From Craspedostauros australis (lineage: Eukaryota), in NCBI GenBank assembly GCA_030167865.1, contig JALAGF010004817.1, positions 1 to 64,000 on the forward strand: DNA of 64,000 nucleotides. Reading direction: 5' to 3'. Under the pieces are notes generated by a model. The model was given only the letters and a program-made list of their open reading frames with translations. It was not told where the DNA came from and made no database searches. Both the position numbers and the translations under genes were made by a program. Every line of letters starts with the position of its first letter. Within the stretch, counting starts at the first letter, position 1. Shown here one piece after another: positions 59,601-64,000 of the stretch.

Positions 59601-60755
59601 ATGACCTACCGCCCCAACGAGAAGGTCTCCCGACGCAAGAGATCATACAAGTCCGATGTGAAATTCTCGCCGCCGGACCGGTATGGCCAATTGCACCCCA
59701 TCGAGACGACGGAGGTTGTCCAGAAGAAGATCAAGGATATCGACGTGCAGTTGGCGCAGATTCCCGATGACGAGAAGTGTTGCTACCTGCAGGCCGTAGA
59801 TCGTTGTCCAGGGTTGGTTTCACAGCGAGAGAAGCTCATGTTCCTGCGCTCCGAGGTATTCAACGTCGAGGTGAGACAACAACAAGCCACCACGCATGAT
59901 ATTGCTGAGTCCAACACTGCATATCTGGAGAGCAGTATCCTCTTTTGTCGTCTCAGGCAGAGATGTGCTTCAGTGTGGCTTCCCTTGTTGCAACCATCGC
60001 CATCGCTCACAATATTCGGTTCTGACATCATCTCCACCCTTTTGTCGTTACCTGTCACAACCCGCCACCACCTGCATCATATCACATCACACCGCATCGA
60101 ATACTCTACACTCTTCTAGCTAGCTGCGCGACGCCTCGTCGATTACTGGGAAAGACGGGTTGAGCTCTTTGGACCACAGAAGGCGTTCCAACCACTTACA
60201 CTGAATCAAGCACTGAGGGATGACACCGCCGCCCTCGAGAACGGCACAGTCGGCATCTTCCCTCACAAGGTCGATGATGCCGGACGCCAGGTCATTGTGT
60301 ACGACCCGTCCAAGTTGGATGCGACGGCGCATTCTCGAGAATCCTGCACCCGAGCACTGTGGTACTTCATCCACGCGGCCCTCGAGGACGAGGATACGCA
60401 AAAGCATGGCGTCATCGTGATCGTGACGCCGAAGGATGTCAAGTTCTCCCAATTCGACGCGCAGCAGGAGATCATGATCGTGCGCACGCTCAAGCGCCTC
60501 GTTCCCATGCGCGTGTCCGCCGTCCATATCTGCCGTCCCGCCTACTTCTTCTCCGTCATCTGGCCCTACATCAAGATCTTCTTCGGTCAGAAGCTGCGCC
60601 GCCGTGTCGTGATTCACTACGGTTCCGATTTCCACATCACGCAGCAATTGAAGAAGTACGGTATGCACCGGTGCAACCTTCCCAGCGATGTCGGAGGCTT
60701 CATCATGTTCGATCAGATCGGGTGGCTGCGAAAACGCCGCCTGCATGGTCTGTGA
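59601..60755 (+). CDS. CRAL-TRIO (Sec14-like) lipid-binding protein; exons 59601-59870 and 60120-60755
   Basis: LMFLRSEVFNVE|LAARRLVDYW, TQKHGV, PMRVSAVHIC.P..F and LPSDVGG. Confidence 0.85.
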
Positions 60756-61052
60756 CGAGCCTTGCTGGATCGTGCCATCGCGTTTCCCTCTTGCGCCGTT
60801 TGCAAGGAGGACTTTCGTTGCATGGCGACTGATTCTGCCAGTTCATGAACCGCTTTCGCGGCCAAACAATTAGAGAAGAGCACAAAGTAGAACATTGCAT
60901 ATATAATAGTAGACACTACATTCTAACGATACAACGGAAGCGAACGATGGGCCTCTTGAATGCTTGATTGATTGACTGAGGACTATAGTCAGAGTGGTGA
61001 GCTGCCGCTGACGAGATTTAATGACTGCGCAAGTTCATTTTGCTTACTCTCT

Positions 61053-63801
61053 CTAGGCCAATCCGTTGTGTCGCAGCAAGGCATCGGGAGTTGGATCACG
61101 CCCGCGGAACTGCCGGAACACGTCGGATGGGTGCACTCCACCTCCGAGGGACAGGACGGTGTCGCGGAAGCTGCGACCGACCTTCTTGACCTCTTCTTCG
61201 TTGTCCAAACCGGCATCCTCGAATGCACCAAAGGCATCGGCGGACATGACCTCCGCCCACTTGTAGCTGTAATATCCGGCCGAGTAACCACCGGCAAAGA
61301 TATGCGAGAAAGCGCAGAGGAAACGATCTTCGGCCAATGGGAGCTGGTATGGGCTGTACTTCTCAGACATGCGTTTTTGCACATCGAATACGGTCTCGTC
61401 GCTGGCTGGGTCGTAGTTGGAATGGAGCTCGATGTCGAGCATTCCGAATGTGAGCTGACGGCACGACATCATTCCAGCGTTGTAGGTCTTCTGCGCGCAG
61501 AGCTTCTCGAAGAACTCCTCTGGCAATGGCTCGCCGGTCTCGTAGTGCTTGGCAAAGCCGTACACGGTGGCCTTGTCGTAGCACCAGTTCTCCATGAATT
61601 GGGATGGCAGCTCGACGGCATCCCACTCGACTCCGTTGATACCGGCGACGTCGCCGACGGACGCCTTGGTGAGCATGTGCTGGAATCCGTGTCCGGCCTC
61701 GTGGAAGAGAGTCTCAACCTCGCGGAACGTCATGAGGGATGGGGTGTCACCGACCGGTGGACTTCCGTTGCATGTGAGGTACGCCACGGGGACGTCGCGG
61801 TCGCAGGCGTCGGACTTGCCGATGCAGACATCCATCCAGGCGCCGCCTCTCTTGTCGGCTGGGCGGGAGTATGGATCCAGGTAGAAGGAGGCGATGTGTT
61901 CGTCGGTCTCCTCGTCGTGGACGGTGAAGAAACGGACGTCGTCATTCCAGACCTCGGCCTGCCCATCGGCAGCCTTGATGGTGATACCGAAGATGCGCTT
62001 GACGAGTCCGAAGAGTCCGTCGAGGACCTTCTCGAACTGGAAGTACGGACGGAGCTCCTCCTCCTTGAGTTCGAACTTTGCCTCCTTGTAACGTTCGGAC
62101 CAGAAGGTGGTGTCCCATGGCATGAGCTTCTCAAGGTTGGCTTCGGAGTAGTCCTCGCCGCCGTTCTCGCGTGCGTAGGCGGTGATGGATTCGAGCTCCT
62201 TGTAGGCAGCGGGCAGGGCCTTCTCGAGGATGAGGTCCGACAGCTCCTCGACGGAGGCGACGCTGGGTGCCATCTTGGCCGCCAGGCTCTTCTCAGCGTG
62301 GTTGGTGAATCCCAACATCGAGGCTGCCTCGGCGCGCAGGCTGAGGATCTCATCGATCAACGGCACGTTGTTGCGTGCGCCGTCGGCGTCCTTCTCGATG
62401 TCGGATGCCTTCGTGAGGTAGGCCATGTAGATGGCTTCGCGTGTGGCGCGGTCTGGGATGTGCTGCATGGCGGCGAGGTAGGAGGGTCCGTCCAGGGTGA
62501 TCTTCCATGGGCCTGCCTCCGCGTTTGGCTCCACCTTGTCGTCGTCGGTGGAAGCCCCCTGCGCGTACATCTGCGCCCACATGCCTAGGGCGGAGTCAGG
62601 CACGCCCTTGACCGTGTCGGCATCCTCGATGACCAGGCCGAATGCCTTGGTGCTGTCGAGGACGTTGTTGGAGAACTTGAGGGAGAGCTCCGAGAGGCGC
62701 ACTTTGATCTCGTTGAAGCGCTCCTTGGCATCGCCCTCCAGACCAACGCCGCCGAGCTTCATCTGCAGGAGGGACTTCTCGACGGCGCGGGCCTTCTGCT
62801 GATCGAGGAAGGACTCGGCGTCGTCCGGCAGCGAATCCTGGATGCTCTCCAGGGCATCGTAGAGCGGCTTGGACTGCGAGAACTTGGAGAAGGCCTTGAC
62901 GACCTTTGGCTGCGCCTCCTCGTAGGCCTCGCGCAGCTCATCTCCGTTCTTGACTCCGTTGAGGTGGCCGGCGACGCCCCATGCGTATCCCAGCGGCTCC
63001 TGCATCTTCTCCAGCTCCGGAATGACCTGCGGGTACTCGATGGCCGTCTCCTTCTCGTTCTGCACCAGGCTTTCCTCCAGAGCAGCGAAGTCGGTCTCGA
63101 GCTTGTGCAGCAGGGAATCCACGGCTGGCGTCAGGTGCTTTGGCTCGATGGAGGCGAACTTGGGAAGTCCAGCTTGGTCCATCAGCGGGTTCTCCACTGT
63201 GGTGGCTGTGGCGGTCATGGTGCGGTGTGTCGATGCGATGCAAGCTGTGGGTGAATATAATATAATAGAATATTATATAATCGAAGTGTATGAATGTGTA
63301 TGAATACGTGTGAATGTGTATGAACGTGTGTGAGCGTATTTTGTGTGGGAGCCAATTTGGTGAGCGTGCGTTGGTTTGTGCGGCGAACGAAACTGAAAGC
63401 GAAAAAGAAAAGGAAGAGCATCGAAGAGAACAGAACATGAATGGCCTCTCTGTCGTTGGGGATCAAAGGCAACCAACCAAGAAACGATCTTTCATCCCCA
63501 CGCGTTGTGCATCCACACGCCATCCTCCAACGCACTCCATCAAACAACACATTACATTACAATACACCACATGACATGCCAACCAACGAAAGCTGATGAC
63601 AGAGTACCTCTCGCACGCGTCAGCAGCGGCCGATGCAGCAGGCGTCGTAGCATCATGGTCAGATTTTATGACGGTTCTCGTTTGCCGCTTGTGCAATCCT
63701 CGTCACTCACCATTGCTGGCTGCCTTGACGTGCGTGAAGGCCGAAGCCGCACGGCTGGATGTCAGCAAAATCAGCGTGGTAACCTTGGAATGGAACTTCA
63801 T
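61053..63801 (-). CDS. prlC: M3A oligopeptidase A (organellar oligopeptidase-like); main exon 63244-61053, alternative first exons 63801-63711 or 63656-63608
   Basis: Zinc motif LFHEAGH, plus KRGGAWM, WDAVELPSQFMENW and GGYSAGYYSYKWAEV. Each upstream phase-1 exon splices in frame to the CACAG acceptor at 63245. Confidence 0.92.
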
Positions 63802-64000
63802 GGTCAACTCTTTGTTCTATGGCAACAATGAAGCACAATGACAGAGTGATGGTGTTGCTATTGTCGTTGCTGTTGCTGTTGTTGTTGCTATTGTCGTTGT
63901 TGGCTCTGATCTTGATGACGATGATGGCATCAGCGGTTGCAAACACTTGACGAAGCAGCCACAAAGGTGGCGCCGATCTTGTTCTTGGATTGCACTTTGT

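Follow-up and report, generated by a model that had tools for sequence, protein, structure and literature searches.

A candidate alternative first exon that could give a diatom oligopeptidase A a mitochondrial N-terminus beside its plastid one

The peptidase gene and its plastid-type first exon

The gene considered here lies on the minus strand of a stretch of 64,000 nucleotides (nt) of Craspedostauros australis DNA (contig JALAGF010004817.1, positions 1 to 64,000 of the forward strand), which was analysed at its full length and is referred to as the window. Our subject is the 5' end of this gene, where one first coding exon (exon A) would supply a plastid presequence and a candidate second one (exon B), located inside the first intron, may supply a mitochondrial presequence to the same enzyme. 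The body of the gene is an open reading frame (ORF) of 721 amino acids (63218–61053) that is opened by Met 63218. It forms part of exon 2 (61053–63244), which holds the last 9 codons of the presequence and, from the conserved Met 63218 to the stop codon, the M3 peptidase. The protein matches Peptidase_M3 (PF01432) at E = 6.8e-136 over residues 251–719, corresponding to profile positions 2–456 of 457 and hence to the full length of the domain, and the N-terminal domain TOP_N (PF19310) at E = 5.1e-29 over residues 34–165. The zinc-binding motif HExxH is present as HEAGH, and its residues H506, E507 and H510 are invariant across 29 aligned diatom proteins. Protein relatives at an E-value of 1e-50 or better numbered 6265; among the best 120 of these, which were examined, the closest are 73–75% identical, and all the named relatives are diatoms (Seminavis, Nitzschia, Odontella, Chaetoceros, Thalassiosira and others) except for one Brassica entry. 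The identity between the window protein and Brassica oligopeptidase A is 54%. The same Pfam family and TOP_N domain characterise the Arabidopsis organellar oligopeptidase OOP, an M3A enzyme that degrades targeting peptides. Judged by its domains and relatives, the locus encodes a diatom M3 peptidase of the organellar-oligopeptidase type (oligopeptidase A / OOP).

Upstream of Met 63218, exon A (63801–63711) was read from the minus strand as a first coding exon of 30 codons and one base, encoding a predicted signal peptide, an ASA-F motif and the start of a transit-peptide-like region. Its start codon (ATG-A, 63801–63799) is preceded six codons upstream by an in-frame TAG, and its phase-1 donor, as read from the sequence, is GTGAGT (63710–63705); left unspliced, the frame of exon A stops two codons on (TGA, 63705–63703). 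Intron 1 (63710–63245) is 466 nt long and phase 1 and ends in CACAG, with the acceptor end at 63245, so that exon A joins exon 2 (from 63244) in open frame. The 3' half of the intron contains simple repeats; at 63253–63362 these are tandem repeats of AATAT and of a GTGTATGAAT-type unit, as read on the plus strand.

The peptide of exon A resembles the N-termini of relatives. It aligns ungapped over 29 residues, 11 of them identical, with the transcript-derived N-terminus of P0204, a member of the cluster of the closest relative that comes from a 2346-nt contig (score 61), and P0205, from a 2.3-kb contig of the same cluster, likewise aligns to exon A without gaps over the first 29 residues. Typical full-length relatives carry 30–80 extra N-terminal residues, in which M-K/R and a hydrophobic stretch are followed by an A/S/G-F motif. 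The corresponding cleavage-site motif of exon A is AASA followed by F (ASAFAP type), the same A/S/G-F being found in most signal-peptide-type orthologue N-termini, and the hydrophobicity maximum of exon A (2.25 on the Kyte-Doolittle scale over 8 residues) is within the range of the orthologues. The joined form has 5 Lys/Arg and its first acidic residue at position 48, which corresponds to a basic, transit-peptide-like region. The ASA-F motif, together with this homology, points to plastid targeting of the exon A form.

The position of intron 1 could be compared among relatives in two cases. The genomic-type ORFs P0006 and P0207 part from P0204 immediately upstream of an Ala that they share and that precedes the conserved Met by seven residues. 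P0011 (from a 2.3-kb contig) and P0128 (from a 3.6-kb NCBI contig) have an Ala in common nine positions ahead of the conserved Met; from this Ala on they are identical over 171 of 171 residues, and before it they are unrelated. The acceptor in the window likewise gives a split Ala codon, nine residues N-terminal to Met 63218. Because the divergence points at the shared Ala in P0011/P0128 and P0204/P0207 match the window acceptor, we infer that a phase-1 intron with an Ala split codon, 7–9 residues before the conserved Met, is common to at least three diatom species, including that of the window. A metagenome scan, in which 80 loci were kept, gave only four diatom-like ones (L001–L004, 64–69% identical), the remainder being 54% identical or less; the orthologous intron was seen in none of these four: L001 and L003 have presequence and mature ORF in one uninterrupted frame without an intron, and L002 and L004 are contigs measuring about 2.6 kb.

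Taken together, the model in which exon A is spliced to exon 2, and hence a plastid-type bipartite presequence, is well supported. The initial annotation had already identified the gene as oligopeptidase A, an assignment that the M3 and TOP_N domains and the diatom origin of the best relatives confirm. Its coordinates, donors, phases, CACAG acceptor and in-frame joins were all recovered when the minus strand was read and translated anew, and its view of exon A as a first exon with signal peptide and ASA-F motif agrees with the homology to the first exons of relatives and with the conserved intron position.

A candidate coding exon within intron 1

Only 54 nt separate exon A from exon B, which is in a different reading frame and starts at ATG-B (63656–63654), directly followed by a second ATG. 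Two forms of the candidate can be drawn: a long one (63656–63584) of 24 codons and one base, with the donor GTTGGC (63583–63578), and a short one (63656–63608) of 16 codons and one base, with the donor GTACTC (63607–63602). Further phase-1 GTs would end the exon at 63617 (GTGCGA) or at 63566 (GTATTG). Both the long and the short form join the acceptor of exon 2 in open frame. Since an in-frame TAA four codons upstream of ATG-B (63668–63666) closes its upstream frame, exon B can code only as a first coding exon. Two other arrangements were rejected: read-through from exon A into exon B, which is ruled out by the different frames, the TGA after exon A and the TAA before exon B, and splicing of exon A to exon B as an internal exon, which is ruled out by the TAA in frame and by the lack of any AG between 63677 and 63612.

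The downstream end of exon B permits one further arrangement that would leave the N-terminus of exon A in place, namely splicing of exon A to a 24-nt micro-exon (63607–63584) and then to exon 2, by which the transit peptide would become 8 residues longer. These 24 nt are open in the frame left by exon A and are flanked by AG (63609–63608) and GT (63583–63582), but no pyrimidine tract precedes the AG, the donor is weak, and the peptide that runs from exon 1 to exon 2 in the closest relative equals the direct exon A/exon 2 join in length. We consider the micro-exon highly improbable.

In the form starting with exon B there are 6 Lys/Arg, acidic residues are absent up to position 34 or 42, the hydrophobic moment is 0.58 and a hydrophobic-x-x-hydrophobic-hydrophobic motif lies at residue 3. 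This N-terminus fits an Arg-rich, acid-free mitochondrial presequence capable of forming an amphipathic helix, import itself being a prediction. Six ATGs of the intron have phase-1 GTs downstream, and a basic, acid-free peptide starts only from the two adjacent ATGs of exon B. Exon B is also the G+C maximum of the intron (0.65 at 63656–63608 versus 0.435 for the rest of the intron), a peak that is not independent of its Arg richness.

The frequency of such a peptide by chance was estimated in two ways. With criteria that were picked after the exon B peptide had been seen (ATG-started, acid-free, phase-1-compatible, number of basic residues in 16), an exon-B-like ORF arose in 3.2% (at least four Arg/Lys in 16 residues) or 0.5% (at least five) of 5000 dinucleotide shuffles of the 466-nt intron, in which the local G+C island of exon B is not reproduced. 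Among the ATGs of the window, 37 of 2871 start such a peptide with at least four basic residues and 11 of 2871 one with at least five. The sequence context of ATG-B, TGACCATGA, is identical to that of ATG-A and occurs at 4 of 2872 window ATGs. ACCATGA is found at 21 of the 2872 (0.7%), three of which are the starts of this gene (ATG-A, ATG-B and Met 63218), and may be a preferred start context in this DNA. The start context of exon B is new circumstantial support for the exon. Elsewhere in the window, ACCATGA also marks the first ATG of a 2340-residue ORF (27336, minus strand).

A second line of circumstantial support was provided by the presequence of P0125, a Nitzschia-like orthologue whose nearest full-length relative is from N. 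inconspicua (a search for longer relatives of P0125 gave 2 matches). From an internal Met of P0125 onwards, the 24-residue peptide of exon B aligns ungapped, with 13 of 22 residues identical and a score of 47. This score was reached by 5 of 3000 full shuffles (about 0.2%) and, when blocks were preserved, by 3, 3 and 4 shuffles of 2000. None of 29 presequence-like decoys taken from the window reached it, and 4 of 600 peptides from random window ATGs did; these four may lie in the coding region of the gene itself. In the reverse search with the 22 residues of P0125 as query, the exon B ORF came out at the top of 2071 six-frame segments (47 versus 38 for the next), and with a 52-residue query it was again at the top (51 versus 42). 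The likeness to P0125 is isolated but statistically unusual, and as such it adds new, circumstantial support to exon B as a candidate presequence.

Exon B weighed as an alternative first exon

In the mechanism that we propose, the main mRNA, as the comparison with relatives shows, joins exon A to exon 2 across the 466-nt phase-1 intron and hence encodes a plastid form, and a minor second mRNA would have exon B as its first coding exon, starting at ATG 63656 and spliced at 63584 or 63608 to the same acceptor. The signal peptide would in this way be swapped for an Arg/Leu-rich, acid-free N-terminus acting as a mitochondrial presequence. Such an mRNA could arise by two routes: transcription could start downstream of ATG-A, or the same promoter could be used with a weak downstream donor chosen instead of the strong GTGAGT, in which case exon A would become a 32-codon upstream ORF ending 46 nt before ATG-B. 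We regard exon B as a credible functional alternative first coding exon, with a probability of roughly 0.45. The initial annotation had proposed dual targeting by alternative first exons; exon A and the layout with a shared acceptor stand, and the use of exon B in transcription, splicing and translation is putative.

A number of observations weigh against exon B being used. All of its possible donors (GTACTC, GTTGGC, GTGCGA and GTATTG) are weak, departing from the GT[AG]AGT seen at the donor of exon A and among the donor candidates at four other ORF junctions (3892, 5939, 6589 and 49331, plus strand). At those four, taken from an ab initio, heuristic listing of GT..AG junctions, GTAAGT or GTGAGT lies between consecutive ORFs with high G+C at third codon positions, with introns of 116–192 nt, an indication that GT[AG]AGT is a strong donor consensus in this genome; a Pfam scan of 21 ORF pieces located no introns. 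The contigs of a public run, X1 (putative RNA), contain no joints and leave 61836–63811, with the 5' junctions, uncovered. The match to P0125 stands alone: the next best score, 27, does not even reach the mean of the shuffles (about 31). P0125 had been selected for the reverse search with its match already known, and the presequences of P0031, P0129, P0131 and P0046 do not single out exon B, with three Nitzschia-like presequences besides that of P0125 in the comparison. Exon B is unlike the first exons of the closest relatives (scores of 19–20 against P0204, P0205 and P0208), and the transcripts of these relatives, contigs of 2.3–2.5 kb, carry A-type exons only. No B-type N-terminus was found among 200 related proteins and 10 cluster members examined, and a signal-peptide form paired with a distinct mitochondrial-type form occurred in 0 of 10 species clusters. 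Of the twin-exon layout that the initial annotation had suggested looking for in other diatoms, exon A is conserved and no B-type N-terminus was found, in a comparison made at the level of protein N-termini. The likeness between exons A and B themselves is weak (protein score 25, reached by 2.7% of shuffles). Finally, for P0009 and P0215, which belong to the same 90% cluster, the N-terminus of P0009 looks like a signal peptide that continues into the A-F of the exon itself; we take this N-terminus as intron read-through and the different N-terminus of P0215 as the spliced one, and on this interpretation intron read-through ORFs can mimic targeting peptides by chance.

Two remarks belong to these comparisons. 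A recent tandem duplication of exon A was rejected as the source of exon B, the DNA likeness not being significant (9–11% of shuffles reach the score). The case of P0009 and P0215 is, in its own right, a caution for ORF-based calls on eukaryotic metagenome contigs.

The same observations can be accounted for if only exon A is used. Exon B would then be a chance ORF, or decayed older presequence DNA, on a G+C-rich patch, and mitochondria would receive any enzyme through an ambiguous presequence of exon A, initiation at a non-AUG codon or a different M3 gene. This explanation is favoured by the weak donors of exon B, by the lack of B-type N-termini in relatives, by the ability of intron ORFs to mimic targeting signals and by the fact that Arg/Leu-rich, acid-free ORFs are not rare (the 37 of 2871 window ATGs given above). 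It has to accommodate, however, partly independent coincidences that fall on one ATG, namely peptide and phase (0.5–3.2%), ACCATGA (0.7%) and the P0125 match (about 0.2%). The idea of a relic meets a further difficulty: a relic of some age would be expected to have lost its open frame, and a recent one derived from a signal-peptide exon to encode a hydrophobic peptide, not an Arg-rich one. We consider it quite possible, if at somewhat less than even odds, that exon A is the only first exon in use; the finding would in that case be a gene-model correction, with a missed 5' exon that encodes the plastid presequence.

If exon B is used, the arrangement would differ from that of most orthologues. 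In two sets of orthologue N-termini of the signal-peptide type, 38 of 51 and 17 of 21 (55 of 72 in total) contain a second Met within the signal peptide; the sequences are related to each other, so that neither these counts nor those for the conserved Met below are independent. Several entries in the databases have an internal Met of this kind as their first residue. Exon A has a Leu (CTG) at the place of the second Met of P0204, the closest relative. Across the family, this second Met may allow alternative initiation of a mitochondrial form, and the pattern fits the nested-initiation idea proposed for aminoacyl-tRNA synthetases in the available text of Gile et al. 2015 (PMC4494062). In most orthologues, the conserved second Met could do by alternative initiation the job that exon B would do in this gene, where the residue is Leu; the family-wide second Met is also a separate lead for alternative initiation in the same enzyme. 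It is tempting to suppose that the usual nested two-Met arrangement was replaced in this lineage, with exon A keeping the signal peptide and losing the second Met, and exon B, a diverged partial copy starting at the equivalent Met, turning Arg-rich; with Met 63218, one gene would then give plastid, mitochondrial and cytosolic forms. We rate this extended scenario as rather unlikely. P0208 also has no second Met, so the loss of this Met in exon A need not be compensated, which is a further point against exon B.

Of the extended N-termini, 71 of 80 in one set and 29 of 35 in the other have a Met near the start of the mature part, within the last 30 residues of the presequence and often preceded by R-A, and five species clusters contain both a long form and a form starting at the conserved Met. 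A third, cytosolic form may start from Met 63218, the evidence for it being this conserved Met. The same Met enters another explanation for exon B, in which its region would be transcribed in intron-retaining or internally started RNAs, giving regulatory upstream ORFs or a presequence-free form from Met 63218, with no mitochondrial tag. Intron retention is the commonest type of alternative splicing in diatoms, and the conservation of the Met and the five clusters with both forms would fit such RNAs. Yet a retained intron would block a start at Met 63218, because twelve ATGs precede it in the intron, and database entries that begin at the conserved Met may come from incomplete contigs or from ORFs called on DNA that still contains introns. 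We think this explanation of exon B improbable.

Plant OOP has one ambiguous presequence and serves a primary plastid. In the diatom, by contrast, plastid entry needs a signal peptide for the endoplasmic reticulum (ER), and the second exon may supply a mitochondrial tag, both the activity and the location of the enzyme being predicted. OOP is described, in the available text of PMC9291397, as dual-targeted to mitochondria and chloroplasts in photosynthetic eukaryotes and as cleaving peptides of 8–23 residues, which agrees with the dual targeting asserted for the Arabidopsis OOP in the initial annotation. According to the same text, 85 of 123 photosynthetic eukaryotes keep two OOP lineages, a point in favour of exon A being the only first exon used here. 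The initial annotation had also argued that a single ambiguous presequence is hard to use. That claim is weakened by the Phaeodactylum arginyl-tRNA synthetase gene argRS2, which has no second Met and was seen to be dual-targeted (Gile et al. 2015, in the text available of PMC4494062). Ambiguous presequences do work in diatoms on this evidence, and the argument that exon B is a necessity is weak; argRS2 counts against exon B and in favour of exon A alone.

The dual-targeted aminoacyl-tRNA synthetases of diatoms are similar to the present case in organelle pair and host type; they have a signal peptide and transit-like region with a stronger mitochondrial prediction from a second Met (PMC4494062), and most orthologues of the peptidase gene share this second Met. 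Their N-termini are nested in one exon or ambiguous, whereas here there is no second Met and the proposal is of a separate exon. Gile et al. 2015, who call for start-site mapping, leave three options open, namely an ambiguous signal, alternative initiation and alternative transcription starts; for the diatom synthetases, alternative transcription starts are named in the available text (PMC4494062) only as an untested option. Dorrell et al. 2017, as far as the available text goes, screened for both mechanisms, ambiguity and internal Met (PMC5462543). The use of alternative first exons or transcription starts with a common acceptor is a standard mechanism (Kunze and Berger 2015, PMC4585086, available text). 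Fig. 4 of that paper and the apicomplexan synthetases shared by apicoplast and cytosol (cited in PMC4494062) have two first exons, each with its own ATG and signal, and a common second exon, as in the gene model proposed here; relative to such known cases, the exons here are 54 nt apart and exon B is a candidate. Our literature searches found no described plastid/mitochondrion pair of alternative first exons for a diatom or other complex-plastid alga. Also comparable are hisRS and glyRS of chlorarachniophytes (Hirakawa et al. 2012, cited in both PMC4494062 and PMC5462543), in which one gene serves complex plastid and mitochondrion with two N-termini; there, a single mRNA is translated from alternative starts, and no alternative exons are involved.

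How complex-plastid algae route one gene product to both the ER-routed plastid and the mitochondria is treated as an unsettled question in the available text of PMC4494062. If the proposed mechanism is true, exon B would separate the two signals physically, in an exon-level division of labour for the targeting signal, and each exon could be manipulated separately, making the gene a clean test system.

Neighbouring features

The only part of the gene that is covered by run X1 is 60978–61756 (minus strand), where one contig of 779 nt matches without mismatches. Downstream of the peptidase gene, an ORF with a CRAL/TRIO domain (60120–60752, plus strand) is convergent to it, with about 300 nt between the two stop codons. 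Upstream of exon A lies a (TGTTGC)n array (63853–63902), and short, imperfect matches to X1 contigs were seen at 63861–63905.

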